A stretch of DNA of 64,000 bases, from NCBI GenBank assembly GCA_015229005.1, contig JADGCL010000004.1, positions 6,314 through 70,313 on the forward strand. The letters run 5' to 3'. This stretch comes from Magnetococcales bacterium. Its GTDB lineage: Bacteria; Pseudomonadota; Magnetococcia; Magnetococcales; JADGCL01. Of this stretch, positions 26,729-54,139 are shown piece after piece. The position numbers were made by a program, and so were the translations under genes. The notes under the pieces were generated by a model. That model saw only the letters and a program-made list of their open reading frames with translations, was not told where the DNA came from and ran no database searches. Positions within the stretch are counted from its first letter, which is position 1; each line of letters begins with the position of its first letter.

Positions 26729-26903
26729 TGAGCTTTTCCGCCTTTTCGATGACAATCCCGCCAGTGCAATGTGCAGGGCTGCCCCTGTTTCCGGGGATTC
26801 CTTGATCGAACCGCAGGGGATCTGAGTCACCGCTGTTTGGGAATGTCCGGGCGTGGGGCACGCCCGCCAACCATCCACATCACAGGGCAAGGGATATGCG
26901 GTC

Positions 26904-27329: not shown

Positions 27330-27338
27330 GGAGACTGA

Positions 27339-28718
<1,380 letters not shown>

Positions 28719-28797
28719 TTTCCGGTCCTCCGGTCGGGAGGGGGAGGATTTCCCCCTTCCTGACCAGGCACCGGTTCCCGGGATCGGGGATTTTGCC

Positions 28798-32629: not shown

Positions 32630-32683
32630 GTTTCCAGAAAACCGCTGGCAGGACATCCTGCTGGTTGGAAATGGGCTGAGGCC

Positions 32684-33037: not shown

Positions 33038-33047
33038 TAAACTGGGG

Positions 33048-36364: not shown

Positions 36365-36369
36365 GGTGG

Positions 36370-37407: not shown

Positions 37408-38283
37408 TCATGCGACCCAGTTCTCCAGAAAATCGATCCACGCCTCCATGCCGAGACCACTTCGGGCGCTTACCTCCAGGAGCGTCACATTCGGTCGCAC
37501 CTGCCGGAGGTTTTGCCGACAGAGGGCCATATCCCAGTCGAGATGGGGAACGAGATCGATCTTGGTGATCACCACCACCGGCGTTTGATGGAACAGCGTT
37601 GGGTACTTGACCGGTTTGTCTTCGCCCTCGGTGACGGACAGGAGTGCGACCTTCATCGTCTCCCCCAGATCGAAGGCGGCGGGACAGACCAGGTTGCCGA
37701 CATTTTCGATGATCAGGAGCCGGGTTCCCACTGGAGCCGCATGTGCCAGCAACTCTCCCACCTGCCCCGCGGCCAGGTGACAGGAGTTCCTGGTCTCGAT
37801 CTGATGCACTGGGGCCCCCTTGCCCCGGAGCCGACGGGCGTCATTGTCGGTCGCCACATCACCGACGATGATCGCGCAATTCACCCGACCCTGCAAACGT
37901 TCCAGGGTTTGTTCCAGAAGCAGGGTCTTTCCCGCCCCGGGCGAGGAGATCAGGTTGATGGCCCGGATCTGCCGCTCCGCCAACCAGCGACGATTGGCCT
38001 CGGCAAGGGCATCGTTTTTGGCCAGAACCCGGCTCTCCAGGGAGAGATGCCGATGAGCCGGGCTTACAGCTCCGATCGATGAGGTCCGCAATGGCCCGCG
38101 GTCATGGCTGTGAACATGATCGTGCCCATGATCGTGCCCGTGATCGTGCCCGTGATCGTGCCCATGTTCATGATCGTGTTCGTGACCATGGCTGTGCCCG
38201 TGATCCCGGAGGTGATCAGGGTTCGTTGCGTGATCAGGGTCGAGACCCTGGACGTGAGTCAGACATCCGCACTCCCGGCACAT
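37408..38283 (-). CDS. hypB: hydrogenase nickel incorporation GTPase HypB with His-rich tract
   Basis: Start at MCRECGC (ATG 38283, TGATG overlap with the hypA stop, GGAGG RBS). His-rich tract HGHSHGHEHDHEHGHDHGHDHGHDHGHDHVHSHD. G-domain motifs SSPGAGKT and ENVGNLVCP. Confidence 0.92.
   Translation of the reverse strand: MCRECGCLTHVQGLDPDHATNPDHLRDHGHSHGHEHDHEHGHDHGHDHGHDHGHDHVHSHDRGPLRTSSIGAVSPAHRHLSLESRVLAKNDALAEANRRWLAERQIRAINLISSPGAGKTLLLEQTLERLQGRVNCAIIVGDVATDNDARRLRGKGAPVHQIETRNSCHLAAGQVGELLAHAAPVGTRLLIIENVGNLVCPAAFDLGETMKVALLSVTEGEDKPVKYPTLFHQTPVVVITKIDLVPHLDWDMALCRQNLRQVRPNVTLLEVSARSGLGMEAWIDFLENWVA
38101..38205 (-). repeat. His-Asp/His-Gly codon microsatellite encoding the HypB metal-binding tract
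   Basis: Repeated catgatcgtgccc/gtgatcgtgccc units on the plus strand. Confidence 0.8.
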
Positions 38284-38624
38284 CAAGTCACCTCCAGGGA
38301 TCGAATCACCAGGTCGCGCCCGTCGATGATCTCGGGGGCGGACCCGCAGCCGCCGCAGGGGGCAAAATCGACCTTCTCGGCTTGCCACTCCCGTTGACAC
38401 CTGGGACAACGAAAGCAGAGGGGGGTCTCCACGATCTTGAGGATGGCGCCCTTCAGGGGGGTTGCCTCCACCACCAGAGGGAAGCAGAATTCCAAGGCCT
38501 CGCGCTCAACCCCGCTCAACACGCCCATCGCCACGGTGACCGAGACCAGTTCCTGGACCCCCTCCCGGGCCATGATTTCCTGGAGCTGCTCCACCAGGGC
38601 CGTGGCCAGGCTCAGCTCGTGCAT
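38283..38624 (-). CDS. hypA: hydrogenase nickel insertion protein HypA
   Basis: MHELSLATALVEQLQEI N-terminus (MHE nickel site) and zinc motifs CFRCPRC ... CGGCGS. The start overlaps the hypE stop (TGATG). Confidence 0.9.
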   Translation of the reverse strand: MHELSLATALVEQLQEIMAREGVQELVSVTVAMGVLSGVEREALEFCFPLVVEATPLKGAILKIVETPLCFRCPRCQREWQAEKVDFAPCGGCGSAPEIIDGRDLVIRSLEVT

Positions 38625-39628
38625 CAGCAGATCCTTGGGAGGAGTTCGCCGCTGGGCAGATCCACAAGCCTCAGGCCGCCGATGGCGGTCTCCAGGACGA
38701 CCCTTCCGGCCTGATCGGTGACCTCGCCGATTACCTGGGCCTGCCGTCCTTCCGGGAAAGTGCGCCAGCGTTCGAGGATGGGGTCGGCCAATTCCCGGGC
38801 GCAGAGGAGGAGGAGACACCCCTCCGAGGCGACATGGAGGAGATCCAGCCCCAGCATTTCCGCGAGTGCCCTGGTGCCGGGGGAGTGGGGGAGGTCATTT
38901 TCCCTGATCCGCAGGCCGAAGTGGTGTCCCAAAGCCATCTCGTTCAGGACGGTCGCCACCCCGCCGCGGGTGGGGTCGCGCATGAACCGGACCCCCGCCG
39001 CAAGGGGGGCAATCGCCTCGACCAGACGATGCACCGGTCTGGAATCGCTCACCGGCCCCCGGTCGATGCGGAACCCTTCGCGGGCGGCAAGGATCGCCGC
39101 CCCATGGTCACCGATCGGGCCGCTGACGAGAATGGCATCTCCCGGGATGACCCCTGCGAACCCCAGGGAAAATTCCTCGATCACCTCGCCGATGCCGGCG
39201 GTATTGATGTACAGGCCATCGCATTGGCCGCGGCGGACCACTTTGGTGTCCCCGGTCGCGATGGTTACGCCGCAGGCATCGGCGCCACGTTTCACCGCAT
39301 CGAGAATGCGTCCGAGGGTTGCCAGGGGCAGACCCTCCTCCAGGATCAGGGCGAGAGAGAGGAAACGGGGACGTGAGCCCGCCACCGCGAGATCGTTGAC
39401 GGTCCCGTGGACGGCCAGGTCGCCGATATTGCCGCCGGGGAATTCCAGCGGCTGGACCACGAAGCTGTCGGTTGAAAAACAGAACCTCCGGCCCCCCAGG
39501 GTCAAGGTCGCCGCATCCGGCAATGACTGGAGCGGGCCGGCGCCGAAGCGGGGAAGGATCTCCGTTTCGACCAGTTCGTGTGAAAGCCGACCGCCGCCAC
39601 CGTGCCCCAATAGGATCCGTCCCTTCAT
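38624..39628 (-). CDS. hypE: hydrogenase maturation protein HypE
   Basis: Start at MKGRILLGHGGGG (ATGA overlap with the hypD stop). PurM-like fold. C-terminal ..LLPRIC with the terminal Cys typical of HypE. Confidence 0.93.
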   Translation of the reverse strand: MKGRILLGHGGGGRLSHELVETEILPRFGAGPLQSLPDAATLTLGGRRFCFSTDSFVVQPLEFPGGNIGDLAVHGTVNDLAVAGSRPRFLSLALILEEGLPLATLGRILDAVKRGADACGVTIATGDTKVVRRGQCDGLYINTAGIGEVIEEFSLGFAGVIPGDAILVSGPIGDHGAAILAAREGFRIDRGPVSDSRPVHRLVEAIAPLAAGVRFMRDPTRGGVATVLNEMALGHHFGLRIRENDLPHSPGTRALAEMLGLDLLHVASEGCLLLLCARELADPILERWRTFPEGRQAQVIGEVTDQAGRVVLETAIGGLRLVDLPSGELLPRIC

Positions 39629-40752
39629 GCGCAAACTCCCGAGGCCATGCCGACCTTCCCGCCGTAGCGAAACGCTGCTGCGCAGTTGCCCTCGGAGCTG
39701 ACCATGCAGGGGCCGAGGGGGCGATCCGGGTGACAGGCGCCTCCAAACAGGGGGCACTCCTCGGGGGCGAGTTTGCCCTTCAGAATCTCTCCACAGAGGC
39801 ACCCGGGGTTGAGCCGGCCCGGCTGGAGGATGAGGCCGTGGCGGTTCCCGGCGTCGAATCGGGAGAATTCCGGACGGAGGTTGAGAGCGCTGGCGGGGAT
39901 CGTCCCCAACCCCCGCCAGGAGGCGTCACCCGGGAGGAGATAACGATCCATGAGGGCGAGCGCCTGACGGTTGCCCCCGGGCTTGACCACCCGCGCATAC
40001 TGGTTGTCCACCCGTGCTTTTCCGGAGAGATATTGCTGCAACAGACCATCCAGGCCGAGAAGGATGTCGAGGGGCTCGAACCCGGCCACCACGCAGGCCA
40101 CTCCGTGGGTTTCGGCAAAAGGCAGGTAGGCATCGGCGCCGATGATGGCGCTGACGTGGGCGGGACAGAGGAGACCGTCGATGCGTATCCCGGGATCGGA
40201 GATCAGGGCCGCAAGGGCCGGGGGGATCCGCTTGAAGGCAGTGAGGAGGGAGAGATTGCCGATCCCCTGGGAGACTGCTGCGTCCAGCATGGCAATGACC
40301 GGGGCGACGGTGGTTTCAAAGCCCACGGCGAGAAAAACCACCTCGCTTGCCGGGTGGTTGCGGGCGAGTTCGAGGGCCGACATCGGCGAATAACAGACCT
40401 CGACTCGTCCCCCCTCGGCGCGTGCCTGAGCCAGAGTGGAGCGTGACCCCGGGACGCGGACCATGTCGCCGAAGGTGGACACGATCACCCCGCGATCGGC
40501 GAGTTCGATGGCGGCGTCCAGATAGCCCGGATCGGTCACGCAGACCGGGCAGCCCGGACCGCTGACCAGGCGGATACCCGCCGGCAGGAAATCCCGGATG
40601 GCGTAGCGGGCAATGGCCATGGTATGGCTGCCGCAGACCTCCATCAGGCGAACGACGCGCCCCTCTCGGGCGAGTTGCCGTCCGTGGTCGGCCAATCTCC
40701 GACGAAAATGGCCTGCGGCCTCCATCCTTCGAAATCCGTCCCGATAATTCAT
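39625..40752 (-). CDS. hypD: hydrogenase maturation protein HypD
   Basis: Start at MNYRDGF (ATGA overlap with the hypC stop). Motifs MEVCGSHT, GPGCPVCV and GFETT, plus the C-terminal Cys cluster. Confidence 0.93.
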   Translation of the reverse strand: MNYRDGFRRMEAAGHFRRRLADHGRQLAREGRVVRLMEVCGSHTMAIARYAIRDFLPAGIRLVSGPGCPVCVTDPGYLDAAIELADRGVIVSTFGDMVRVPGSRSTLAQARAEGGRVEVCYSPMSALELARNHPASEVVFLAVGFETTVAPVIAMLDAAVSQGIGNLSLLTAFKRIPPALAALISDPGIRIDGLLCPAHVSAIIGADAYLPFAETHGVACVVAGFEPLDILLGLDGLLQQYLSGKARVDNQYARVVKPGGNRQALALMDRYLLPGDASWRGLGTIPASALNLRPEFSRFDAGNRHGLILQPGRLNPGCLCGEILKGKLAPEECPLFGGACHPDRPLGPCMVSSEGNCAAAFRYGGKVGMASGVCA

Positions 40753-41033
40753 GGGTCCTTGCCCGGTGGTCGGGGAGGGGCCACCAGGGTCACCTCCGCA
40801 CCCGTCTCCTGGCGGGCGATTTCGGCCAGGGATCGGAAGAGAGCGAGGCGAGCATCGGCCTCGGCGGTATCCAGTTTTTCGATGGCATAGCCCGCATGCA
40901 CGAGGAGATAATCGCCGATTGCGGGGGATTCGACGAGCATCAATCCCACCCCGAAGCGGATGCCGTCCTGTTCGACCACTCCCATGCCGTTCTCTTCGAC
41001 GGCGACGAGCTGCATCGGCACGGCAAGGCACAT
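40749..41033 (-). CDS. hypC: hydrogenase assembly chaperone HypC/HupF family
   Basis: Begins MCLAVPMQLV, the invariant N-terminal Cys2 motif. 94 aa. Confidence 0.9.
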   Translation of the reverse strand: MCLAVPMQLVAVEENGMGVVEQDGIRFGVGLMLVESPAIGDYLLVHAGYAIEKLDTAEADARLALFRSLAEIARQETGAEVTLVAPPRPPGKDP

Positions 41034-41034
41034 G

Positions 41035-42264
41035 TCAGGGATTTCCTCCGGCGATCCAGGCTTGACCCAGTGCTATCCCGGCATCCCCGGTGGCAACCTG
41101 CCGATGGAAAAGGGGCGAACCCCCTCTTGAGGCAAGTTCGGGAATCACCAGTTCGCACAATACGGTATTGAAAAAAACGCCGCCGCTCAAGATTACGGTC
41201 GTGAGCCCCGTTCGAGCGATGCCCCAGGCGGCCATCTCCCCGATGGCCTGGGCCATCGCTCGATGGAAGGCCATGGCCCATTCGGCCCTTGCGGAGGCGG
41301 CCTCCCTTGCCGGCGCCTCTCCCCGGGGCATCTTACGAGCCGGCGGTGGCAGGCGAAACGCGGCGGACCAGTCGATCTCCAGAAGGCCCTCCGCCTCGCG
41401 GCGGGCAAAGCTCACGGTACGTTGGCAATCGTTGTCCGTCCAGCGCCGGGCTTCGGCCTCGAGGCGCATGGCCGCCTCGCCTTCGTGAGCGATGGTCGTA
41501 GGGGCCACCCCGAGCCAGGCGGCAAAGGCATCGAAGAGCCGCCCCGCCGCATGGCTGACCGGGGCAAGGACCCCCCGTCGACACTGATGAGCCCAAATTC
41601 CGGCCTCGGGCTCCGACACCCCGCAACTTTCCCGCCAGGCTGGTGGGGGCTCGATCCCGGCAGCCACCCAGCGCCCGACCAGTTGCCGGCGCGGCTCCCG
41701 GACGGCGGCATCGCCTCCCGGGAGCGGCACGGGGGCGAAGGTGCCCAGACGGCTGAAGCCGTCCGGTCCGATCCGCAGCAACTCCGCCCCCCAAAGACGA
41801 CCATCCGGGCCCCATCCCAGACCGTCGAACACCACCGCCAGTCCCGCCGCGAGGGCGTGTTCCGCCAGGCCTGCCGCGCCATGGGCATGGTGGTGTTGTA
41901 CCGCCACGACCGGAATCTCCCAGCTTGCGGCCAGACGGCGCCCCAGGATCGAGGGGAAGAGATCCGGGTGGAGATCCACCGCGATTACTTCGGGGGCCGT
42001 GGCCGGATCATCGCGGAGGTGGGCGACGGCCTCTTCCAGCCTTTGGCGTGCCTCAGGGTCGGAGAGCTCACCGGAGGGCGGTGAGAGGGTGATCGTCGAT
42101 CCGACTCCCAGGGCGATGCGGTTTTTGGCCTCGCTTCCCATCGCCAGGACCCGGCGCCGCAGGGGTTGGGGGAGGGTGATGATCGTTGCCAGGCCCGTGT
42201 CGAAGGGGGGCGGCAAAGCCCTGCTCGATATCGGGGAAGAGGGGATAACCCGGGAGCCACTCAC
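41035..42264 (-). CDS. hypF: short HypF: Kae1-like carbamoyltransferase domain only (about 409 aa)
   Basis: Matches the C-terminal half of HypF (LAMGSEAKNRIALG, VVAVQHHHAH, HAAGRLFDAFAAWLG, ILSGGVFFN). Proposed GTG start at 42264 overlaps the protease stop (GTGA). No acylphosphatase, Zn-finger or YrdC-like region is encoded in any frame nearby. Confidence 0.8.
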   Translation of the reverse strand: MSGSRVIPSSPISSRALPPPFDTGLATIITLPQPLRRRVLAMGSEAKNRIALGVGSTITLSPPSGELSDPEARQRLEEAVAHLRDDPATAPEVIAVDLHPDLFPSILGRRLAASWEIPVVAVQHHHAHGAAGLAEHALAAGLAVVFDGLGWGPDGRLWGAELLRIGPDGFSRLGTFAPVPLPGGDAAVREPRRQLVGRWVAAGIEPPPAWRESCGVSEPEAGIWAHQCRRGVLAPVSHAAGRLFDAFAAWLGVAPTTIAHEGEAAMRLEAEARRWTDNDCQRTVSFARREAEGLLEIDWSAAFRLPPPARKMPRGEAPAREAASARAEWAMAFHRAMAQAIGEMAAWGIARTGLTTVILSGGVFFNTVLCELVIPELASRGGSPLFHRQVATGDAGIALGQAWIAGGNP

Positions 42265-42869
42265 AGGAGTCCGGTTCCCTTTGCGGCGGGACTGCCTGGG
42301 CCGGTTCCCGGCGCCGCCTGCTCGGAGCGGATGAGCCAATTCTGCAACGCTTCCAGGAGAACTGGAAATCGGGCCGACATTTCGGTCGTGAGGCCCGAAT
42401 ACGGGGTCAGGGCAAACGGTTGTACACCGAAGATATCGATGGTGTGGGGGTATCCAAGGCCGACGGCGATGGCCAGGGCCTCGGCCAAACCCAGTCCATG
42501 GGTGGAGAGCGGGGAGAGGTGATCCCGGAGCTGCCCGCCCCGGAGCGAAAATGCCCGCCATGCCCCTGCTTCAAGCCCCATGTCGGCGCAATCGACGATG
42601 AGGAGCGGCCCCGGAAGGGTGGTCAGGTCATGGGCCAAGGTGAGGGCGTCGGCATCCTCCCAGAGCAGGGTGGTGATCGGACGGTAGTCCCTCATGGAGC
42701 CGGGAAGGGTCCTGGCAAGGGCCTCGACCAGGGCGAGACCTATCGCGTCATCGCCCGCCGCCCGGCTGCCGAGGCCAGCCACTGTCAGCCCAGGGTTGAC
42801 GCAGCCGACCAATTCGGTCGATGACAACACGGGTCTCCCTGGTGGCTTGGGCAGAGCTTCAATCGGCAA
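42261..42869 (-). CDS. hydrogenase maturation endopeptidase (HupD/HyaD/HybD family)
   Basis: GLGSRAAGDDAIG, IVDCADMG and STHGLGLAEAL correspond to the three metal-ligand regions of HybD-type proteases. First gene of the hyp operon. Confidence 0.85.
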   Translation of the reverse strand: MPIEALPKPPGRPVLSSTELVGCVNPGLTVAGLGSRAAGDDAIGLALVEALARTLPGSMRDYRPITTLLWEDADALTLAHDLTTLPGPLLIVDCADMGLEAGAWRAFSLRGGQLRDHLSPLSTHGLGLAEALAIAVGLGYPHTIDIFGVQPFALTPYSGLTTEMSARFPVLLEALQNWLIRSEQAAPGTGPGSPAAKGTGLL

Positions 42870-43338: not shown

Positions 43339-44856
43339 ATGGCAAAAACTTTTGTAATTGACCCCGTCACCCGCTTGGAGGGCCATCTCTCGGTCCGAAT
43401 CGAGGTGGCGGACGGCAAGGTGACCGAGGCCTATTGTCAGGGGGAGATGTTTCGGGGTTTTGAGCAGATTCTCCGGGGCCGGCACCCGATGGACGCGCAG
43501 CAGATCACCCAGCGTATCTGCGGGGTCTGTCCCATCTCCCACGGCATTGCCTCGGTTCTGGCCCAGGACGCTGCCTACAAGGTGTCGCCGCCCCCAAATG
43601 GCCGATTGTTGCGCAACCTTGTGCAGGCGGCGAACTACATTCAGTCGCACATAGTCCATTTCTACCTCCTTTCGGCGCTCGATTTTGTCGACATCACCGC
43701 CGTTCTGAAGTACACCGGCGACAGCCCTGTTATGGCCGATCTTCGCGGCTGGGTGGAGCGCCAGCTCAAGGAAAAGCTGATCTATCCGGCGGCCCCCTTT
43801 CTGCCGCGCTACGAGGGGAAATACCTGGCCGATGACGCGGCCAACTTCATGGCCATCCGCCACTACGTCGAGGCCCTGGAGATGCGCCAGACAGCCCACC
43901 AGATGGTCTCCCTTTTCGGCGCCAAGGTACCTCACTCGACGGCCCTTGTTCCTGGTGGTATCACCGAGAAGGTCACGGCTCGCGCCATCGTCGCCTACAA
44001 GTCCAAGCTGGAGAAATTGCGGACATTCATCCGCGATGCCTACCTTCCGGACGTGGTGCGGGTGGCGCAGGCGATGCCCGATTATTTTGAAATCGGCAAA
44101 GGCTGTGGCAACTTTCTGGCCTATGGGGTCTTTCCGGAAAGCGATGCGCCCGATGATGCCTTTTTTCCCTCGGGGGTATTGACGAAGGGTCAACTCCAGC
44201 CCCTGTCGACGGCGAAGGTGGCCGAGCACCTCAAATTCTCGAAGTTTGACGCTCGTGCCAGCGGTCGTCACCCGTACCAGGGGGAGACCATTGCCCAGCC
44301 CGCCAAGGAGGGGGCCTACACCTGGCTCAAGGCGCCGCGCTACGATGGGCAGGTCATGGAGGTCGGGCCACTGGCACGGATGCTGATTGCCTACCACTCG
44401 GGGAAACACCCCGAGATCGTGAAATCAGTCGACGCCCTGCTCGCTGCGGTAGGGGGCAAACCGGAACACCTCGATTCGGTCCTGGGGCGTCATGCGGCTC
44501 GGGCCTTGGAGTGCCAGATCGTTGCCGACAAGTGCCTCGACTGGCTTGCGGAACTCAAACCGCGTGAGTCAAGCTTCAACGAGTTCGAACTGCCGCAAAC
44601 GGGCGAGGGGGCCGGTCTCACGGAGGCTCCGCGTGGGGCGCTGGGACATTGGCTGGTCCTGGAGGAGAAGCGTATCAAGAGCTACCAGTGCATCGTACCG
44701 ACCACCTGGAACTGTTCTCCCCGGGACGACAAGGGAGTCCCCGGGGCGCTGGAACAGGCGATTGCCGGCACCCGTGTCGAGAGTCCCGAAAATCCCATCG
44801 AGGTGGCGCGGGTGGTTCGTTCATTCGATCCTTGCCTGGCTTGCGCGGTCCATTAA
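43339..44856 (+). CDS. [NiFe]-hydrogenase large subunit, 505 aa, ending exactly at DPCLACAVH
   Basis: Start at the ATG at 43339 (MAKTFVIDPVTRLEGH). N-terminal Ni-binding RICGVCPISH and C-terminal DPCLACAVH, followed directly by TAA (no cleavable extension). Confidence 0.93.
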   Translation: MAKTFVIDPVTRLEGHLSVRIEVADGKVTEAYCQGEMFRGFEQILRGRHPMDAQQITQRICGVCPISHGIASVLAQDAAYKVSPPPNGRLLRNLVQAANYIQSHIVHFYLLSALDFVDITAVLKYTGDSPVMADLRGWVERQLKEKLIYPAAPFLPRYEGKYLADDAANFMAIRHYVEALEMRQTAHQMVSLFGAKVPHSTALVPGGITEKVTARAIVAYKSKLEKLRTFIRDAYLPDVVRVAQAMPDYFEIGKGCGNFLAYGVFPESDAPDDAFFPSGVLTKGQLQPLSTAKVAEHLKFSKFDARASGRHPYQGETIAQPAKEGAYTWLKAPRYDGQVMEVGPLARMLIAYHSGKHPEIVKSVDALLAAVGGKPEHLDSVLGRHAARALECQIVADKCLDWLAELKPRESSFNEFELPQTGEGAGLTEAPRGALGHWLVLEEKRIKSYQCIVPTTWNCSPRDDKGVPGALEQAIAGTRVESPENPIEVARVVRSFDPCLACAVH

Positions 44857-44886
44857 GCGGAAGCGCTTGCCGGATATTCTTCGCCG

Positions 44887-44953
44887 ATGGGGCTGGCGCG
44901 GGATGATGGGGCCGGCGCGGGATGCGACAGTCCCGGACCAAGTCCCGAACCAA
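44887..44953. repeat. two short tandem duplications in the large/small subunit spacer
   Basis: 19-mer atggggcYggcgcgggatg x2 (44887-44924) and 12-mer gtcccgRaccaa x2 (44930-44953). Confidence 0.75.
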
Positions 44954-45015
44954 GTGGGATTGCCTTGCCGCTTATGCGGTCTCTCGGTACCACAGGATTG
45001 TGATCCCAGGGAGAT

Positions 45016-45969
45016 ATGGGAATGGCCATAATGAATCGACGCGATTTTTTGAGATTGGGCAGCCTTCTTGCTCTGTCGATGGGGCTCGGGGAGTCTCTGG
45101 CGCCGCGTCTCGCCGAAGCTCTGGAGGAGCTTACCCTGGGGCAGAATCCGATCCTGTGGTTGCAGAGTCAGGCCTGCTCGGGTTGTTCGGTCTCTTTTCT
45201 CAATTCCGATGATCCTGGGCCTGCGGAGCTCCTGACCACCTACATCAATCTCCTCTTCCACTCGACCGTTTCGACCGCGACCGGTGATCTGGCGGCCCAG
45301 GTTGTGAACGGTACGATCAAGAAGGGGGGATATTATCTGGTTGCCGAGGGAGCCCTGCCCGCTACCATGGAAGAGGCCTGCATCTTTGCCGGGGAGCCGA
45401 TGACCAAACTGGTCACCGAAGCCGCACGCAAGGCCAAGGCGGTGATCACCGTTGGCAGTTGCGCTTCCTGGGGCGGGGTCCCGGCGGCGGAAAACAATCC
45501 GACCGGGGCAACTTCGGTTCCCGACTATCTGGAGAAGCAAGGAGTCCACCCCACCTTGATCCGGCTCCCGGGATGCCCGGTCCATCCGGATTGGGTGGTG
45601 GGTACTCTGGCCCATGTTTTGGGCTTTGGACTGCCGGAGTTGGATCATTTCAAACGCCCGCTCATGTTCTACGGCAAGACCGTTCACGACCAGTGTCCCC
45701 GCTTCGCCTATCATGAGCGTGAACAATTCGCACGTTCGTTTGCCGAGGAGGGGTGCTTGTTCGAGCTGGGATGCGTCGGTCCCCGCTGTTTCGCCGATTG
45801 CCCGCAACGCTTGTGGAACTCCCGCACCAATTTTTGCATACGCGCGGGGGCGCCGTGCATTGGTTGCGCGAATGAGGATTTCGCCCGCCTGGCGAATTTC
45901 CCCTTTTATCCCAAGGGGATGGACTTTTCTCAGCGTCGCGAGATCGTGCTCCCCAAGGGGTTCAAATAG
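45016..45969 (+). CDS. [NiFe]-hydrogenase small subunit with twin-arginine signal peptide
   Basis: MNRRDFLRLGSLLALSMGLG Tat motif. Proximal cluster CSGCSVSF, GSCASWGG and PGCP. Medial/distal cluster HDQCPR and CLFELGCVGPRCFADCP..CIRAGAPCIGC. No C-terminal TM anchor. Three possible ATG starts at 45016-45031. Confidence 0.92.
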   Translation: MGMAIMNRRDFLRLGSLLALSMGLGESLAPRLAEALEELTLGQNPILWLQSQACSGCSVSFLNSDDPGPAELLTTYINLLFHSTVSTATGDLAAQVVNGTIKKGGYYLVAEGALPATMEEACIFAGEPMTKLVTEAARKAKAVITVGSCASWGGVPAAENNPTGATSVPDYLEKQGVHPTLIRLPGCPVHPDWVVGTLAHVLGFGLPELDHFKRPLMFYGKTVHDQCPRFAYHEREQFARSFAEEGCLFELGCVGPRCFADCPQRLWNSRTNFCIRAGAPCIGCANEDFARLANFPFYPKGMDFSQRREIVLPKGFK

Positions 45970-46043
45970 GTGATCCCAGGTCTGTATTGCGGTACGCGGT
46001 CGACGAATATTGACTCCGGCAGGGAACCGATGGCAGACGCAAA

Positions 46044-48185
46044 ATGAAACTTCAGACGAAGCTAATTTTATCGTTCATTGTCGGGTTGGTTGCCGTCATC
46101 AGCGTGGCACAGGTTGTCCAGTACTTTCGCATGACCCAGTTGGCCCAGGTCATGGCCGAGGCGAATACCCGCGAGGTTCGGCGGATGGTGGAGAAAAACG
46201 CCGTAAACGTTTTCACGGCTGTTGAACGCGCCATTGCTGTCTCGATGCAGCGGGGTGAAATGGAAAAGTTCGACCGAATGGTCCGGGAACAGGCCCAGGT
46301 GGCCGGGTTGGTGGAATTTTCACTGTACGACAAGGAAGGCAAGGTTTTCAGCTCCACCGCCTATCAAACCGATAAGCTCAAACTTCCTGAAAAGCACGCT
46401 TTACAGGTCAAGGGTGTGGTCGTTAGCAATAACTGTATCCGCTGTCATGATCCTGAAGACGTTGGCTTGCCAAGTCGTATGATTGGCGGAGAGTTGCTGA
46501 AGACTCTTCGAGCCCAAAAGGAAATGTGGCTTTCCCAGACGGCGGATGAGATCGAAATTTATCAGCCGCAGATTGTTGTTACCACTTGTACCCGTTGTCA
46601 TTCGGAATGGCGGGAGGGGGAAGCGGCAGGGTATACCCATTTCAAGTTTTCCAAGGCCGCTCTTCAGGAGCTTGAGGAGAAGGTCGAGGAATCATTGATG
46701 ACAATTCAGGATGCTATTCTGAATTTCAGTTTTCTGTTGATTATTGGTATTGTTATGGTTCTTACGCCTCTGGCTTTTTTCTACACCCGTCATGCACTGG
46801 TCCTGCGTCTCCAACATCTCGGGGAGCAGGTCCAGGCTATTGCCAAGGGCGATCTTTCCCGGCGTATTCCTCTTGCGGCTCGTCTGGACGAGATTTCGCT
46901 GATTGCCAGCCATGTCAATACCATGGCTGACAGTCTGGCCAAAACGGCGGCCTCGGTGGGGGATCAGGCGGGGACGGTCGCTTCGGTGGTCAGCCGTTTC
47001 GAGGATGCCCGTCAGGCTCTTGGGGAGAAGGCCCAACGTACCAATGATCTGGCCCTCACTGCCCTTGGGGAAAATGAGCAGCTGGTAAGTGAGATCCGCA
47101 CCATGCAGGAGGAGGTGACCCGTGCCACGGGCAATATCGACGCGATTTCCCAATCGGTCGAGGCCCTTTCCGGTAACGTCAATACTGTCGCTTCCGCCGC
47201 CAATCAGGCCAGTCAGAATGTTACCACCATGGCCTCTGCGGCGGAGCAGATGACCTCCAATGTGGCCGAAGTCAATTCCAGTCTGGTGAGCGTCAACGAT
47301 TCGGTGGCCCGGGTGGCCCACTCCGTCCAGGAGATGACCCATTCCCTGGGCGAGGTCAGGCGACGTTGCCAGGACGCGAGTCAGAAATCCAATGAGGCCG
47401 ATAAACATGCTCGTGCCGCCGAGTCGGTGATGAGTCGTCTTTCCGATTCGGCGATCGAGATCGGCAAGGTGGTCGAGTTGATCAACAACATCGCTGAGCA
47501 AACCAACATGCTTGCCTTGAACGCCTCCATCGAGGCTGCCGGGGCAGGAGAATCCGGCAAGGGATTCGCGGTGGTGGCCAACGAGGTCAAGGAGCTGGCG
47601 CGGCAGACCACCAGCGCCACCCGGATCATCGATGAGCGCATTGCCGACATGCAGGAGAGTTCGCGGCAGGCCTCCCTTTCGGCCCACGAGATCGCCCAGG
47701 TTGTCAGCGACATCAACTGGGCCAATAACGACATCGCCGAGGCCGTGGATCTGCAATCGCGGTCGGCTGAGCAGATTTCCGGCTCCACCCGGAACGTCGC
47801 CGAGGCTGCCGCTTCCGTGACTCGCAATGCCCTTGAACTGGAACACGCCGTTCAGGACGTGGCTCGGGCGGCCTCCGAGGCGGCTGCCGGAACTGCCGAG
47901 ATTGCCCGATCTTCCTCCGAAATGGCCAGTCAGGCCGAGGAGGTTTCGGTCCAGAGCCTGGGGGCGCGTACCTTGATGCAATCGGCGTCTTCGAGTACGG
48001 AAAGGACGTTCCAGTTCTCGACCGGTGTACAGAGCAGGATGGAAGAGGCCTGTGAGTTGGCTACGGGGATGAATGCTTCGGTCCGTGAATTGGGGGCCCT
48101 GGCCGAGGTGATGCAGGAGAGTTCATCCCAGCTCGAGGCGGCGCGGAACGAACTGGACCGGGTTGCCGGTGTTCAAGGGGTGTGA
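46044..48185 (+). CDS. methyl-accepting chemotaxis protein with a periplasmic domain carrying two CxxCH c-haem motifs
   Basis: TM1 ([19 protein letters not shown]). Periplasmic region of about 195 aa with CIRCH (46434-46448) and CTRCH (46587-46601). TM2, HAMP, and the MCP signalling hairpin [35 protein letters not shown]. Confidence 0.93.
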
Positions 48186-48543
48186 TTCGGGACGGGGTGC
48201 AATCGGCCTGGCGCAAGGGGGCCTGTCGCCGGGTGATGAGAGCCGTCGGGATGGATCACGGGTGATCCAAAGGGATTCCTTCCTCCTGCCCCCATTGTCG
48301 CAGGATCTCCAGACCTTGCCATCGAAACCAGGGACGCGGTGACCTTGACGGTCTGTCGATAAACGGGCGGAGTCTTCCACGGATGGTCGGCAAAATTCAA
48401 TGGGACGGTGTAACCCGGCGAATTTGGGTGGGAGGGAGGAACCGGCTTTTGCCCTCCCGGATTGAAGCGGAGTTGAGCCGAATCGGATAACAACCATGAG
48501 TGGACGATGCGCGGTCGCCGCCCGCCGGTCTGTGGGGGCGAAG

Positions 48544-49578
48544 ATGGGTTTCTTCGAGCGTTGGCTGACCCTGTGGGTGGGCCTGTGCATCGTGGTCGGG
48601 ATTCTCCTCGGTCATTTGCTCCCGGGGCCTTTCCGGCAGGTGGGAAGCCTGGAGGTGGCCCGGGTCAATCTGCCGGTGGCGTTTCTCATCTGGCTGATGA
48701 TCGTGCCCATGTTGCTGAAAATCGACTTTCGTGCCCTGCACCGGGTCAAGGAGCATTGGCGGGGGGTTGGGGTCACCCTGTTCATCAATTGGGGGGTCAA
48801 ACCCTTCTCCATGGCGTTGCTGGGATGGTTGTTTATCGCGCATCTGTTCCGCCCCTGGTTGCCGGAAGGGCAGATCGACTCCTACATCGCCGGATTGATC
48901 ATCCTGGCCGCCGCGCCCTGCACCGCCATGGTTTTCGTCTGGAGTCACCTCACCGAGGGCGAGCCCCACTTCACCCTGAGTCAGGTGGCCCTGAACGATT
49001 TGATCATGGTCGTTGCCTTCGCGCCTATCGTTGGGCTGCTGCTGGGGTTGTCGGCCATCACCGTGCCGTGGGAGACGCTGCTGCTCTCGGTGGGGTTGTT
49101 CATCGTCGTGCCGGTCATCGTGGCTCAGGGATGGCGGTTCAAGCTGCTGGCCAGCGGCGGTCAGGAAGCCTTGGACGCTACCCTCAAGGTCCTGCATCCA
49201 GTCTCCCTGACGGCGTTGCTGGCCACCCTGGTGCTGTTGTTCGGGTTCCAGGGAGAGCAGATTCTGGCCCAACCCATGGTCATCCTGTTGCTGGCGGTTC
49301 CCATTCTGATCCAGGTCTATTTCAACGCCGGTCTCTCCTATTGGCTCAACCGCAAGCTGGGCGAGGCCCACAACGTGGCCGCGCCCTCGGCCCTCATCGG
49401 GGCCAGCAATTTCTTCGAGCTGGCGGTGGCCACCGCCATCGGTCTGTTCGGTTTCGAATCCGGTGCGGCCCTGGCCACGGTGGTGGGGGTATTGGTGGAG
49501 GTGCCGGTGATGCTCTCGGTGGTGCGCATCGCCATCGCCAGCCGGGACTGGTACCAGCGGGGCGCGGCCCACGGTTGA
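48544..49578 (+). CDS. acr3: ACR3-family arsenite efflux permease
   Basis: MGFFERWLTLWVGLCIVVGILLG..VNLPVAFLIWLMIVPMLLKIDF is the typical Acr3 N-terminus. About 10 TM segments. Confidence 0.9.
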   Translation: MGFFERWLTLWVGLCIVVGILLGHLLPGPFRQVGSLEVARVNLPVAFLIWLMIVPMLLKIDFRALHRVKEHWRGVGVTLFINWGVKPFSMALLGWLFIAHLFRPWLPEGQIDSYIAGLIILAAAPCTAMVFVWSHLTEGEPHFTLSQVALNDLIMVVAFAPIVGLLLGLSAITVPWETLLLSVGLFIVVPVIVAQGWRFKLLASGGQEALDATLKVLHPVSLTALLATLVLLFGFQGEQILAQPMVILLLAVPILIQVYFNAGLSYWLNRKLGEAHNVAAPSALIGASNFFELAVATAIGLFGFESGAALATVVGVLVEVPVMLSVVRIAIASRDWYQRGAAHG

Positions 49579-49645
49579 CGCCATTTTGCGTTCCGTTCTC
49601 TGGATTGTCTCCTTCGATCGTGAAAGCGGCGTGCCGTCGGTCTGA

Positions 49646-49667
49646 CGCCCCGGGTTGCCCCGGGGCG
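49646..49667. terminator. 9-bp GC stem / tetraloop hairpin between the convergent acr3 and rubrerythrin genes
   Basis: CGCCCCGGG-ttgc-CCCGGGGCG. No flanking U tract on either strand, so intrinsic-terminator status is uncertain. Confidence 0.4.
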
Positions 49668-49708
49668 ATGATTGAGACCGGCTCCTCGTCCGCCGGGGTC
49701 GGGTGGGG

Positions 49709-50209
49709 TCAGGCCACCTTTCGGTAGGCGGTCTGTTTCGCCCCGCAGACCGGGCAGTTTCCCGACGGTTCACCGAAGATGGTGTGGCCGCATACATCGC
49801 AGACATGCAGTGCCTCGTGATCCAGATCCCGACCGCTTTCCAGGGCGGCGATGGCCTGTTTGTAGAGGGCACTGTGGACCTTCTCCACCTCCAGGGCGTG
49901 GCGCATGCCCTGGGCGGCGCGTTTTTCGCCCTCGGCCTCGGCGGTGGCCACCATGCCGGGATACATCTCGTTGACCTCGTAGTCCTCGCCCGCCGCGGCC
50001 TCGCGCAGGTTGGTCAGGGTATCGGCGACGCCGCCCAGGTTGCGCAGGTGGGTGTGGGCATGGATGGTTTCCGCCTCGGCCACGGCCCGGAACAGGCTGG
50101 CGATGCCCGGATAGCCCTCCTGTTCGGCCTTTTTGGCGAAGGCGAGATATTTGCGGTTGGCCTGGCTCTCACCGGCGAAGGCTGCTTTCAGATTATCCTT
50201 GGTTTTCAT
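49709..50209 (-). CDS. rbr: rubrerythrin
   Basis: Start at MKTKDNLKAAFAGESQANRKYLAFA (ATG 50209). Di-iron four-helix motifs (ExxH) and a C-terminal rubredoxin-like CDVCG...CPVCG. Confidence 0.92.
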   Translation of the reverse strand: MKTKDNLKAAFAGESQANRKYLAFAKKAEQEGYPGIASLFRAVAEAETIHAHTHLRNLGGVADTLTNLREAAAGEDYEVNEMYPGMVATAEAEGEKRAAQGMRHALEVEKVHSALYKQAIAALESGRDLDHEALHVCDVCGHTIFGEPSGNCPVCGAKQTAYRKVA

Positions 50210-50312
50210 GATGGCGGTCCTGTTGTTGCGGTCGTGGAAGGGAACATCGGACGACGACGACACACCGGGTGAAACCCTGGTTTCCTCGATCCCGAAGCGA
50301 TGCAGATGGAGG

Positions 50313-50624
50313 TCAAAATGCCCCTGAGGCCGGGATGCGTGCCTCCTGTGTCAATGCTTCGCCACGCACCCGGTTACGGCCCTCCTGCTTGGCCAGGTAG
50401 AGCATGCGGTCGGCCATTTCCCAGAGGGTCGCGGGGCTCGATCCCGAACAGGGCCGGGCGGTCGCCACCCCCAGGCTTGCGGTGACCACCGGGGCGGTCT
50501 CGGAAAGACGGTGGGGAATCCCCAGGCTCATGATGTTCGCTCCGATCTTCTCCGCCAGCTTCAAGGCTCCGGCCAGCCGGGTTTCGGGGAGGAGGATGGT
50601 CTGTTTTCCTTCCGTGTTCGTCAT
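50313..50624 (-). pseudogene. C-terminal half of a GGDEF domain (103 aa), lacking the GGDEF/I-site half
   Basis: [57 protein letters not shown] matches only the post-GGDEF part of diguanylate cyclases. Its ATG (50624) overlaps the kinase stop (TGATG). The rest of ORF 50313-51494 is out-of-frame overlap with the kinase. Confidence 0.5.
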
Positions 50625-53600
50625 CACCCACTCCCGTTCCGAGGCGGCGCCGAGGCCAGGAACCTCTCCAACAGTGCCGCTGCCTCGTCGTATTCCAACT
50701 CGTTCATTCTCTCCCCGACACGGGAGAACAACTCCCTCGTCTCCGCCCCTCCGTGGTCGGCTTGGATCCTCGCCAGGAGTCTCTCCGCCCCGACATCGCA
50801 GGCTCGCAGCAGATCGCGCAACTCCACCAGGAGGTCCAGGGGAACGGCGCCACCGGCGGACCGGGCAGGAGTGCCCCCCCCGCCGGGAAAAATCTCCCGC
50901 AACCGGTGCGCCGCCATCTCCACCGGCAGCATGGCCTGCTCCAGTTCGATGGTCAACTGCAAAGCTGTTTCGATCTCTCCGTTGCGGCAGGCCTGCTCCA
51001 GCTTCCCGGCGATGGCGTATACCGCATTGGCGGAGATGTTTCCGGAGGAGCCCTTCAGTCCATGAGCCAGACGGAAGGCCTCCTCCATATTTTCCGATTC
51101 GATCAATTTCCGGCACTGTTCCGCCGCCGGAAGATGGCGTTTCGAGAAACCATCGACGAGCTGTACCAGGAGTTCGTGGTTGCCGCCCAGCCGGTCCAGG
51201 GCTTCGGCCACATCGAGGCCCGGCAGGGTCGCGGGGAAAGCCGGGGCTTCGGCCACATCGAGACCCGGCAGGGTCGTGGGGAAAGGGCTCGCCGCTGGAG
51301 CGGTTGCCCTGTCTCCCTGGTGCGCCGTGTCCGTCTTGCCCTTGGTGAGCCAGCGGCGGAGCAGTTTCTGAAAGAGGTGCGGGTCGATGGGTTTGGTCAT
51401 GTAATCGTCCATGCCGTTGGCCAGACACCGTTCTCTTTCCGAGGCCAGGGCGTGGGCGGTCATGGCGATGACGGGCAGTTGCTCCGCTCCCCACCTTTGC
51501 CGCAGGAGACGGGTGGCCTCCAGGCCATCCAGGTTGGGCATCTGGAGGTCCATGAACACGGCGTCGAAGCCTGTTGGTTCCCGGTCGAGGAGAATCAGGG
51601 CCTGCCGTCCGTCTTCTGCTCGCGACGCCACGACGCCGGCCATGGACAACAACTCCCGTGCCACCAGCCAGTTGATGTCGTGGTCCTCCACCACCAGGAC
51701 CCGGGCGCCGCCGACCCGGGCGCGGGTTTCCTCCCAGTCGGACGGGTCGAGGGCCGGATGCGTCGGCGTGGATGGCGCCTCGGACAGGCCGAAGGCATCC
51801 AGAATGGTGTTGAGAAGCACCGAGGGTGTGACCGGTTTGAGGAGGAATCCGTCCAGGGAGGCGGCCTGGCGCATGACCTCTTCCCTTCCGAAGGCCGTCA
51901 CCATGATGATCGTCAACGGGTTGGGCAGGTCGGGATCGCCCTTGATGCGTGACGCGGTTTCGAGACCATCCATTCCGGGCATGCGCCAGTCCAGCAGGAC
52001 GAGTCTGTAGGGCGTTTTTCCTTCATCCTGGGCACGTCGCAACTCCCGCAGGGCCTCCAACCCACTAGCCACGGTGGTGCATTGGAGGGCGAACTCCTCC
52101 AACAGACCGCGCATCAACTCCCGGGAGGTTTCGTTGTCGTCCACCACCAGGGCGCGGGTTCCCCGCCAGTGCTGAACGGGCGCCAATGGTTTGCTCTTCT
52201 CGTGTTTCTGGAGACCGAAGAGGGCGGTGAAGGAAAAGCTGCTGCCCTCTCCCGGCACGCTCTTCACGGAGATCTCCCCGCCCATCATCTCCACCAACCT
52301 CTTGGTGATGGTCAGACCCAGGCCGGTTCCTCCATGTTTGCGGGTGATGGAGGAATCCGCCTGAACGAAGGGACGAAACAGGCGGGACCTCTCCTCTTCG
52401 CTCAGACCGATGCCCGTGTCTCGCACCTCGAAACGAAGCATGACCTCGTTCTTCTGCCGCTGCTCTGCGAGCCTGGTGCGGAACAGCACCTCCCCCGCCC
52501 GGGTGAATTTCATCGCGTTGCTGCCCAGGTTGAGCAGGGATTGGGTCAGGCGCAGTGGGTCGCCGATCAGCAGGCGGGGCAACTCGGGGGGAGTGTCGAA
52601 AATCACCTCCACCCCCTTCTCCTCCCCTTTGAAGGCGACGATGGCGGAGACATTCTCCAGCACCTGGTCGAGATCGAAATCCGTTCTTTCCAGTTCCAAC
52701 CTGCCCGCCTCGATTTTGGAAAAATCGAGGATCTCGTCGATGAGTTGCAGAAGGGCGTGAGCGGCGGTCTGGACCTTCTCCAGGTGGTCCCTGACCACCG
52801 GGGGCAATTCTCCCTGGAGCAGCAGATATCCCAGGCCGATGATGGTGTTCATGGGGGTGCGGATCTCATGGCTCATGTTGGCCAGGAACTCGCTCTTGGC
52901 GGCATTGGCCCGCTCCGCCTCTTCCCTGGCTTGCCGAACCTGAAGGTCGCGCTGCTGAATGCGGTCGGCCATGGAATCGAAGGCGACTCCCATGGTCCCC
53001 AACTCGTCTTTTCCCGTCACTTCCGTGCGGGCGTTCAGGTCTCCCTGGGCAAGACGGGTGGCCACCTCCTCCAGATGCCTGAGGGGAGAGGTCAGACGAC
53101 GCGCGGTCAGGGCGGTCAGACCGACGATCATCAGCAGGCCCAGCATGCCGGACAGGAACGCCATGACCGATACGCGGTGCATTGGTGCGTAGAAATCGTC
53201 CTGATCGATCTTGACCACCACCCCCCAGCCCAGGTCCGGATGCAGCCGCAGGTGACGGAATGCGGCCATGACCGCAACGTTGCGATAGTCGTTCTCCTCG
53301 ATGACCCCATCCTCTCCCTGGGAAGCCAGGATGGCGGGTGGGCGCCGGACCCGGAACTCCAGAAGGGCGGCCCGACCGCCATCGGGCAGGGGATGGCGCA
53401 GGGGCGTGAGCAGCCGGGTCTCCCCGTCCACTAGAAACGATTCTCCGCTCTCCCCCAGAAAGCGCCGCGATTCCCGCAGGGAGTGGGTGATCATCTCCAG
53501 GTTGATCGTGATCACCAGGAGCGCCAACACCGGACCGTTCTCCTTCTGCAGGCTGATGGCCATGGGCAGGACAGGTTTGTCTCCGGAGGGCGTAAGCCCC

Positions 53601-54139
53601 ACCTGGCCCACATGGGCCCGGTGGGCGTGCAGCAGACCTCTCTCGACGAAAGCCGCAGAGAAGACCGGCGGGGATTGGGCCAGAGGACCCGCAGCCAGCA
53701 GCACGGCGCCGGTATCCGGAGCGATGAGATGCACCGCCTCGGCATTGGAGAAGGAGGCCACGACGCCGCGCAGATGATCCAGCACTGCGTCGCGATCACG
53801 TTCCTCGCCCCGTTTGCGGTACTTCTCCAGTCGTTCGAGCAGATTGGGGTCGTTGGCCACGAACTGCAGACGGCGCTGTTTTTCCTCGATACGGGCCAGG
53901 ATTTCCTGTTTGTGGTCCTCGGCGATCATCTCCAGGCGGGAGAAGACCTCGGTCCGCAAGGCGGCGAGTTGCCCCTCATATCCGGTGAGGGGAAGCCCCC
54001 AGGTGACCACATGGAAGGTGGCGACCAGAACCATGGCGAACAACAGCCCGAACTGGAACACCATGCGAAATTCCAGCCTTTGCCACCACCGCCTGGGGGA
54101 GCTGCCAGGTCCCGTCGGGGATGGAATGCCGTCACTCAT
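50624..54139 (-). CDS. hybrid sensor histidine kinase (periplasmic Cache-like domain, HAMP, HisKA, HATPase, REC, REC, Hpt)
   Basis: Start moved to the ATG at 54139 (MSDGIPS; ATGA overlap with the upstream binding-protein stop). Motifs: [17 protein letters not shown], two receiver domains ([18 protein letters not shown]), Hpt ([10 protein letters not shown]). Confidence 0.92.
51200..51285 (-). repeat. 45-bp in-frame tandem duplication in the REC2-Hpt linker
   Basis: ggcttcggccacatcgagRcccggcagggtcgYggggaaag occurs twice with a 45-nt period. Encodes [15 protein letters not shown] / [15 protein letters not shown]. Confidence 0.85.

Follow-up and report, generated by a model that had tools for sequence, protein, structure and literature searches.

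Three consecutive genes on the + strand of a Magnetococcales contig (GenBank assembly GCA_015229005.1, contig JADGCL010000004.1) encode the large subunit (L, 43339-44856, 505 amino acids, aa) and the small subunit (S, 45016-45969, 317 aa) of a [NiFe]-hydrogenase exported by the twin-arginine (Tat) route and, 74 nucleotides (nt) after S, a methyl-accepting chemotaxis protein (MCP, 46044-48185, 713 aa) with haem-c attachment motifs in its periplasmic domain. Coordinates refer to the window, i.e. the whole stretch of 64,000 nt that was analyzed (positions 6,314 to 70,313 of the contig). Comparison of sequences and gene neighborhoods indicates that the three-gene module is probably a sensor of H2, or of an H2-dependent redox state, in which the hydrogenase would pass electrons to a haem of the receptor. 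The initial annotation had read hydrogenase and haem receptor as one H2-sensing unit. Its description of the proteins proved exact (large subunit with RLEGH, RICGVC and DPCLACAVH; small subunit with Tat motif, three Fe-S ligand sets and no membrane anchor; MCP with CIRCH, CTRCH, HAMP domain and signalling hairpin), and the idea itself gains strong comparative support from synteny, from the reverse association of sensor genes with hydrogenase genes, from an exchange of the output domain and from the traits of the hydrogenase clade.

The L-S-sensor arrangement recurs outside the window. In three other Magnetococcales-type contigs, a large subunit 66–70% identical to that of the window is followed by S and by an MCP of about 705–711 aa, with different flanks. 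Members at 59–64% identity, found on long contigs, feature L of 503–504 aa, S of 301–307 aa and MCP of 496–563 aa, separated by gaps of 1–20 nt. Overall, the trio is kept from 70% down to 48% large-subunit identity, among unrelated flanking genes, in Magnetococcales, Desulfobacteraceae, Desulfurivibrionaceae, Deferrisomatales, Verrucomicrobia, Planctomycetes and Omnitrophota, and the distance between S and the sensor gene goes down to -4 to 13 nt in relatives. The synteny in relatives, on which the initial annotation had made its proposal depend, is therefore kept across phyla.

A genome scan, with one genome per species and the family alignment as query, gave at least 80 loci, at 39–61% identity; S and both MCP halves were located in every scanned locus by tblastn. 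Among the loci listed, the sensor gene adjoins S in 8 out of 10 members of the clade where L precedes S, and in none of the 63 relatives where S precedes L. The two clade exceptions are L012, where an assembly gap follows S, and L009, where no sensor gene follows S and the cause was not found; L003, whose contig is cut off, is an exception in appearance only. L021, where L also comes before S, was rejected as a clade member: it is an L-endopeptidase-S-HybA-NrfD operon, its large subunit has a C-terminal extension, and it lies elsewhere in the tree. Sensor-bearing loci come from Desulfobacteraceae, other Thermodesulfobacteriota, Desulfurivibrionaceae, Deferrisomatales, Verrucomicrobia/Opitutaceae and Phycisphaerales; protein matches are also labelled Omnitrophota, Planctomycetota and Calditrichaeota.

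Some loci show further peculiarities. L011, from an uncultured member of Verrucomicrobia (CAJCBL010000287.1, 3080-11700), features two divergent L-S pairs, one of them followed by two tandem sensor MCPs, both with the conserved CxxCH. Remnants of a second hydrogenase are found in L013 (Opitutaceae). L006 (Candidatus Magnetomoraceae gMMP-15, 7001-8717) encodes a clade-type large subunit of 504 aa, without extension, adjoined by neither S nor sensor; an open reading frame (ORF) of 62 aa follows it and a CheA gene lies upstream.

The large subunits associated with the sensor form a lineage of their own. In a neighbor-joining tree of 88 sequences, all the sensor-linked ones with L before S fall into one clade (bootstrap 78/100). 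Its sister is an S-before-L group, with metagenome-assembled genomes (MAGs) of Spirochaetes, within an assemblage which also includes the selenocysteine (Sec) enzymes and the Hup enzymes of Dehalococcoidia. The inverted gene order, already pointed out in the initial annotation, turns out to be a clade-specific trait: among the loci listed, all 63 relatives outside the clade have S first. A second trait is found at the C-terminus: the His of DPCxxCxxH is the last residue of every clade large subunit, and nearly all S-before-L relatives run 13–19 aa further; a gene for a HycI/HybD-like endopeptidase is present in 43 of the 63 S-before-L loci listed, often directly after L. Large subunits that lack this extension are characteristic of the regulatory hydrogenases that sense H2 (HoxC, HupV). 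As judged from tree and sequences, the clade is a separate lineage with sensor-like traits, adjoining a respiratory clade.

The association also holds when approached from the sensor side. Three out of three sensor homologues, picked only for their long contigs, directly follow L-S, one of them in Candidatus Magnetomorum HK-1. In L093, S and the MCP gene share 4 nt, at the stop of the one and the start of the other. L089, the one kinase-fused locus examined, has the order L - S - sensor-histidine kinase, the kinase gene (P0124, truncated) starting 13 nt after L-S. The cultured Desulfosarcina cetonica carries L-S-MCP (L090, BBCC01000016.1, 992-9322). In this draft, the MCP is split into ORFs of 342 and 98 aa, by a frameshift or an assembly error, and the module lies directly downstream of genes for a TraG/type IV secretion system coupling protein and a serine recombinase, a setting suggestive of a mobile element.

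When metagenomes were scanned for the sensor motif [EQ]RGEM[EK]KF, 80 loci were obtained. The order is L-S-sensor in 53 of them; in 12 more, S precedes the sensor and the contig ends within or before L. Rearranged versions are S-MCP-L (two loci, L115 and L122), MCP-L-S (two, L152 and L160), MCP-S-MCP-L (L108) and S-MCP-MCP (L130). In three loci the upstream sequence is too short, and the arrangement is undetermined in one (L128); in the last five (L099, L109, L111, L129, L166) the sensor gene is an orphan, with no hydrogenase nearby. About 71 of the 76 informative sensor genes thus adjoin hydrogenase genes, and six order variants retain this adjacency despite rearrangement. The association is two-way, nearly exclusive, cross-phylum and independent of the output domain, as would be expected if the proteins work together physically.

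While a search with the window sensor sequence, which bears an insertion, found 14 short proteins, 313 were found with the family alignment. Among 1.84 billion cluster representatives, at the 50% identity level, the family profile finds 436 members with E <= 1e-10, of which 260 reach E <= 1e-30. Typing of the top 150 representatives by output domain (phmmer, local MCP and kinase probes) gives 115 MCPs, 5 histidine kinases, 27 fragments and 3 other proteins. Three hybrid histidine kinases of 921–938 aa (P0249, P0283, P0319) bear the sensor domain; in P0327 (671 aa) the region following the sensor has no match to the MCP or kinase core.

In the window receptor, two hydrophobic segments (TM1, aa 6-28; TM2, aa 225-247) flank the sensor domain (46125-46718, aa 28-225), which, being located between two transmembrane helices, faces the periplasm, the destination of the Tat-exported enzyme and the only side on which a CxxCH motif is matured. 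TM2 is followed by a HAMP domain (46788-46937, aa 249-298; Pfam E 1.6e-9) and by the signalling domain, where the best Pfam MCPsignal stretch marks the hairpin core (47367-47669, aa 442-542; E 3e-29). When the receptors are aligned, their periplasmic domain proves well conserved over about 140 residues, with the consensus SVERAVAGSLERGEMEKF ... GLLEFSLYD..GVVTHSSD ... EIYQPQ....DCIRCHT.W..G.IGGVT.FRFS. The conserved GEMEKF motif is found at 46254-46271 (aa 71-76): its Gly (G71 in the window MCP) is invariant, its Glu (E72) and Met (M73) nearly so.

Haem attachment is predicted at CxxCH motifs. The initial annotation described the receptor as di-haem and, as far as the window MCP is concerned, both motifs are there: CIRCH at 46434-46448 (aa 131-135) and CTRCH at 46587-46601 (aa 182-186). 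The conserved core, however, has one haem motif: only the second (C182) is family-wide, while the first (C131) lies within an insertion of about 33 aa, restricted to the Magnetococcales group. Accordingly, one CxxCH is found in 145 of the top 150 representatives, two in 4 and none in 1; in family numbering, C152 and H153 are invariant and C149 nearly so. CxxCH is also kept in 15 of the 16 sensor proteins found after L-S, the exception being L015, considered below. By sequence comparison, the di-haem form is a variation on a single-haem sensor, confined to one group. M73 of the GEM motif is a plausible candidate for the distal haem ligand.

No Pfam model covers the sensor domain, for which only a sub-threshold match to Cytochrome_CBB3 was obtained, and no relevant PDB sequence was found by phmmer or profile search. 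Its AlphaFold2 model (pLDDT 76, from a 15-sequence alignment; low confidence in the insertion that carries CIRCH) features a long N-terminal helix and an alpha/beta core of PDC/PAS-like type. Foldseek matches it to the extracellular PDC domains of WalK, KinD, DctB and CitA, and also to the haem-c sensors of Geobacter, GSU0935 (3b42, E 1.7e-3) and GSU0582 (3b47, E 5.6e-2); template modeling scores for the haem-c sensor matches are only 0.31–0.48, generic PDC domains matching better. Membership in the GSU0582/GSU0935 family was considered and rejected, sequence homology being absent by phmmer or profile at E up to 10. On the basis of the model, the domain appears to form a new PDC/PAS-like haem-c family, predicted to work like the haem-PAS sensors of Geobacter.

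The large subunit matches PF00374 (E 7e-154, 513.9 bits) and NCBIfam NF033181 (659.7 bits, against a cutoff of 600). Its motifs are RLEGH (aa 12-16), RICGVC (aa 59-64; 43513-43530) and DPCLACAVH (aa 497-505; 44827-44853); the stop codon directly follows the latter, so that a C-terminal extension is absent. An upstream extension, an ORF of 605 aa from the ATG at 43039, was discarded as the true extent of the gene: all homologues begin at MAKT (43339). The nearest PDB structures are the periplasmic [NiFeSe] hydrogenases of Desulfovibrio vulgaris and Desulfomicrobium baculatum (E about 1e-122 for L and 1e-63 for S), followed by the periplasmic [NiFe] enzymes of Desulfovibrio and, with progressively lower scores, by membrane-bound O2-tolerant enzymes, Hyd-1/2, Huc and cytoplasmic groups. 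On these matches the window enzyme is Group-1a-like, with a Cys replacing the selenocysteine of the Sec enzymes. Group-1a-like relatives work without a cytochrome b, their distal cluster passing electrons to soluble cytochrome c3.

The placement in Group 1a is qualified by the operon layout. The enzyme shares with that group the Tat signal of the small subunit and the best match to characterized periplasmic enzymes, and departs from it in the order of L and S and in the absence, in every clade member, of the extension; the characterized Group 1a operons place S first and combine an extended L with a dedicated endopeptidase. The missing extension is in common with Group 2b, whose cytoplasmic location, position within Group 2 and narrowed gas channel are not found here. 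The catalytic residues are standard, with the proton-path Glu in RLEGH and the His in RxCGxCxxxH. V63 (in RICGVC) and L111 (in HFYLL) are taken to correspond to V74 and L122 of Desulfovibrio fructosovorans, assuming a constant offset of 11. Substitutions of the regulatory-hydrogenase type, in active site or gas channel (Ile/Phe for Val/Leu), were sought in the clade large subunits and not found. Only three large-subunit positions, E36, Q76 and W138, are diagnostic for the clade, and the catalytic machinery appears intact.

The small subunit scores 97 bits with PF01058, 93 bits with PF14720 and 248 bits with TIGR00391 (cutoff 179.5). It starts with a Tat signal peptide (45016-45120), with RRDFLR at 45037-45054 (aa 8-13) and a likely cleavage site at A-E-A (aa 33-35); the twin-arginine motif is kept in the small subunits of all clade members. 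A hydrophobic C-terminal anchor was looked for in the window protein and is absent. The ligands of three Fe-S clusters are present: C54, C57, C149 and C187 for the proximal one, four Cys (in ADC, NFC, APC and IGC) for the medial one, and a His/Cys3 set (HDQC and GCLFELGC) for the distal one. Since a fourth Cys is present, the medial cluster is expected to be [4Fe-4S], as in [NiFeSe] enzymes; this Cys (NFCIRAG) presumably replaces the Pro of [3Fe-4S] enzymes, on comparison with D. gigas and Dm. baculatum.

The spacer between L and S (44857-45015, +) is 159 nt long, against 12–78 nt in relatives, ten times longer than several of them, and includes two short tandem duplications, ATGGGGCYGGCGCGGGATG x2 and AGTCCCGRACCA x2. 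A second gap, of 74 nt (45970-46043), separates S from the MCP. Terminator-like sites were sought in both gaps, and none was found.

A mechanism may be proposed on these grounds. A Tat-exported, soluble [NiFe]-hydrogenase of Group-1a-like descent, maturing without endopeptidase cleavage, would oxidize H2; electrons would exit via the His-ligated distal [4Fe-4S] cluster, as in the cytochrome c3-reducing relatives, to be taken by the c-type haem at the conserved CxxCH of the PDC/PAS-like domain. The second haem, predicted in the inserted loop of the Magnetococcales receptors, may serve as a relay. The redox or ligation state of the haem would alter the conformation of the domain, the Met of the GEM motif being probably the distal ligand, and the signal would travel via TM2 and HAMP to the hairpin of the MCP and on to CheA, so that swimming would be biased by the supply of H2 relative to the haem re-oxidant. 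In members with a kinase output, such as L089, the same input would drive a two-component pathway. Some oxidant would re-oxidize the haem and reset the sensor, whose output would report H2 relative to that oxidant. Haem attachment, electron transfer to the sensor, the direction of the response and its role in physiology are all predicted, whereas gene content, motifs, export signals, modelled fold class, clade structure and the two-way genomic association are observed.

A number of observations weigh against this reading. The active-site and gas-channel residues are standard, and by its sequence the enzyme could equally turn over as an energy-yielding hydrogenase. A redox sensor requires a route of re-oxidation, and none was identified. 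With gaps of 159 and 74 nt, the genes of the window may or may not be co-transcribed, and the metagenome scan contains the five orphan sensor genes. The window is, in addition, the only L-S-sensor locus examined to have a HycI-like gene, while its large subunit offers nothing to cleave; this endopeptidase may serve another hydrogenase, elsewhere in the genome. Finally, the sensor MCP of L015 (Phycisphaerales MAG, 7409-10146) is homologous to the others, yet lacks CxxCH, and in the small subunit of the same locus CSGD replaces CSGC at the proximal-cluster motif: the L015 module could be a haem-independent or decaying version.

Three alternative explanations were considered. In the one which survives best, the haem domain would be a sensor of O2, NO or CO, and the hydrogenase a dedicated reductase keeping the haem ferrous, with H2 being merely permissive. 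Such an arrangement would account equally well for the strong genomic coupling, differing only in the identity of the signal, but it appears unlikely. With its nearly unchanging Met, the GEM motif points to a six-coordinate haem ligated by His and Met, a state more usual in redox sensors than in ligand-binding ones, and a full catalytic hydrogenase would be an expensive means of keeping one haem reduced. In favor of this explanation, Magnetococcales inhabit oxic-anoxic interfaces and rely on aerotaxis, and the window has a rubrerythrin gene shortly downstream; most hosts, on the other hand, are strict anaerobes (Desulfobacteraceae, Omnitrophota), for which H2 itself is a valuable cue. The need of haem-based gas sensors for ferrous haem, which is well established, fits this explanation.

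It is quite unlikely, at the same time, that the genes encode an ordinary Group-1a respiratory uptake hydrogenase, whose electrons go to a soluble periplasmic cytochrome encoded elsewhere, along with a co-regulated MCP, acting independently as a redox or O2 receptor in the manner of DcrA and GSU0582/0935. Co-regulation fails to explain the two-way association (no sensor gene in 63 S-before-L relatives, about 71 of 76 sensor genes next to a hydrogenase, among the loci listed), and leaves unexplained both its persistence with a histidine-kinase output and the fact that, throughout the clade, the extension is lost and the order of L and S inverted. The argument for such a respiratory function comes from the enzyme: its nearest characterized relatives are the respiratory periplasmic [NiFeSe] and [NiFe] enzymes, catalytic and Fe-S motifs are all standard, clade-diagnostic residues of the large subunit are only three, and a full hyp maturation set adjoins the trio. 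A cytochrome c3-like gene, as a possible acceptor, was found beside the module in none of the loci examined.

Conformational coupling is one proposal for HoxBC-HoxJ. A corresponding signalling by protein-protein contact, where the docked hydrogenase would transmit an H2-dependent change in conformation or occupancy and the haem would be structural or secondary, is very unlikely here, although L015 keeps the L-S-sensor synteny with a sensor devoid of CxxCH and although, in the known complex of regulatory hydrogenase and kinase, the interaction is itself described as presumed (PMC6978683). That all but one of the 150 representatives have CxxCH, C152 and H153 being invariant, is hard to explain if the cofactor is dispensable, and the distal cluster retains its His ligand, typical of electron-exporting enzymes.

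H2 sensing through electron transfer to the receptor haem is thus the preferred reading. In its broader form, towards which the comparisons lean on balance, the module would represent an unrecognized class of H2 sensors: a periplasmic [NiFe] lineage derived from Group 1a, with L before S and cleavage-independent maturation, whose physiological electron acceptor would be the haem of a PDC-like sensor, distributed over at least six phyla and used for taxis or gene control. It would include the first candidate H2 chemoreceptor working with a [NiFe] enzyme, and the first sensory hydrogenase outside the cytoplasm.

As for the genomic context, a hyp maturation cluster, identified by Pfam matches, lies divergently on the - strand (37408-42869), outside the conserved trio. 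It is headed by the HycI/HybD-like endopeptidase (42261-42869; PF01750, E 2.7e-7), in which GDD, VDC and STHG motifs are present and the Asp/Asp/His metal site appears intact by eye. The following genes encode HypF (41035-42561), HypC (40749-41033), HypD (ORF 39625-41031), HypE (ORF 38624-39802), HypA (within 38283-38819) and HypB (37408-38409), all on the - strand. HypF appears truncated: matches cover only its Kae1-like C-terminal domains (aa 136-500), and it lacks the acylphosphatase, Zn-finger and YrdC domains, while full-length HypF proteins of 751–879 aa are encoded in the related loci L001, L005 and L007. Because the HypF ORF overlaps that of the endopeptidase by 300 nt, the true start of HypF is probably further downstream. 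Endopeptidase, short HypF and long L-S spacer leave the main conclusion unaffected.

A second hydrogenase, a cytochrome c3-like gene and any other haem-c gene were sought in the window and not found, and no cytochrome b gene lies near the trio. The initial annotation had placed the receptor in the slot of the cytochrome b gene, which is inexact: the nearest characterized relatives use soluble cytochrome c3, and in the S-before-L relatives the gene following L is often that of the endopeptidase.

Downstream of the MCP, on the - strand, the window contains the rubrerythrin gene (49709-50263), a gene for a GGDEF protein (ORF 50313-51494), a hybrid histidine kinase of 1402 aa (50624-54832) with HAMP, two receiver stretches and Hpt, and a protein of 1597 aa with cadherin-domain repeats (55390-60183). 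Two long overlapping ORFs at 48397-49872 have no Pfam match. On the other side, beyond the hyp operon, a Bat-like cluster (30695-37311) encodes a MoxR-type AAA ATPase and DUF58, transglutaminase-like and VWA proteins. Between 22000 and 28000 the GC content is 0.54–0.58, against about 0.63 elsewhere; the ORFs at 25700-26941, 27099-28799 and 28588-29796 have no Pfam match, and the low-GC region is possibly a foreign island.

Anaerobic food webs rely on H2 as a central currency, and movement toward this gas has long been postulated; we know of no receptor for H2 taxis. The H2 sensors known to us are either cytoplasmic and transcription-controlling (Group 2b) or only predicted (Group 2c; [FeFe] Group C). 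H2 taxis has reportedly been shown only in the archaeon Methanococcus maripaludis (PMC3817446). If the proposed function is true, the module would provide a concrete receptor for bacterial H2 taxis, and a case in which a respiratory-type hydrogenase lineage became a sensor by switching its electron acceptor. The receptors would define a new haem-c sensor family that can be joined to MCP or kinase outputs and counts at least 260 representatives at 50% identity. Magnetotactic cocci, which dwell in opposing redox gradients, would gain an input from H2, or reductant, for their magneto-aerotaxis, while sulfate reducers and other anaerobes would be provided with taxis toward an energy source. In metagenomic hydrogenase surveys, the genes of the module are likely counted among Group 1a respiratory uptake enzymes. 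With only three genes, and with a cultured host in Desulfosarcina cetonica, biochemical and behavioral tests are feasible.

Among known systems, the module may be compared first with the regulatory hydrogenases of Group 2b (HoxBC-HoxJ of Ralstonia eutropha, HupUV-HupT of Rhodobacter), where the hydrogenase is likewise the H2 receptor for an adjacent signalling protein. The large subunit devoid of C-terminal extension (as in HoxC and HupV) and, for some module members, the histidine-kinase output are further likenesses. The differences concern enzyme and partner alike: Group 2b enzymes are cytoplasmic, whereas that of the module is periplasmic, with a Tat signal, Group-1a-like neighbors and L before S; its gas-channel residues (V63/L111) are standard; its partner is a periplasmic haem-c PDC-like domain, instead of a cytoplasmic PAS domain, and chemotaxis is the main output.

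The Group 1a enzymes of Desulfovibrio and Desulfomicrobium (2wpn, 5jsu, 1cc1, 4kl8) are the best sequence matches and share NF033181. Like the module enzyme, they are Tat-exported soluble heterodimers, with a [4Fe-4S] medial cluster and no cytochrome b, and they deliver electrons to a periplasmic c-type haem protein, as presumed for the module. The latter differs by a Cys instead of Sec in DPCxxC, by the inverted gene order, by the absence of extension and cleavage, by its separate clade and by its presumed acceptor, a membrane receptor in place of cytochrome c3.

On the receptor side, GSU0582/GSU0935 (3b47/3b42) and DcrA are also MCPs with a CxxCH haem motif in the periplasmic domain, whose PAS/PDC-like fold resembles that of the modelled sensor. 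No sequence similarity to GSU0582/GSU0935 is detectable, the module having its own motifs (GEMEKF ... EIYQPQ ... DCIRCH), and no hydrogenase partner has been reported for these receptors of Geobacter and Desulfovibrio.

The [FeFe] enzymes of Group C2 contain a PAS domain and are fused to, or co-transcribed with, an MCP. Classified as "chemotactic (putative)" (PMC5037454), they resemble the module in that a hydrogenase senses H2 and signals via an MCP, but belong to a different metalloenzyme superfamily, are cytoplasmic and involve no haem or periplasmic step. The [NiFe] Group 2c, "diguanylate cyclase-linked (putative)" (PMC5037454), was likewise proposed to be a sensor because of a conserved neighboring signalling gene; it is a cytoplasmic Group 2 enzyme, with cyclic di-GMP output and no haem sensor domain. 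HydDB lists these two classes along with Group 2b (histidine kinase-linked sensor), and no periplasmic or MCP-linked [NiFe] class (PMC5037454). A gene neighborhood survey of 2025 reports an MCP cluster among the genes near [NiFe] hydrogenases, which the searched parts of its text do not discuss (PMC12727194).

No description of a [NiFe]-hydrogenase/haem-MCP module was found in searches of the open full-text literature, and a prior description elsewhere is possible. Sensory hydrogenases and haem-c chemoreceptors are, separately, already known; what appears to be new is the pairing of a hydrogenase with a haem receptor, its location in the periplasm and the descent of a sensory lineage from Group 1.

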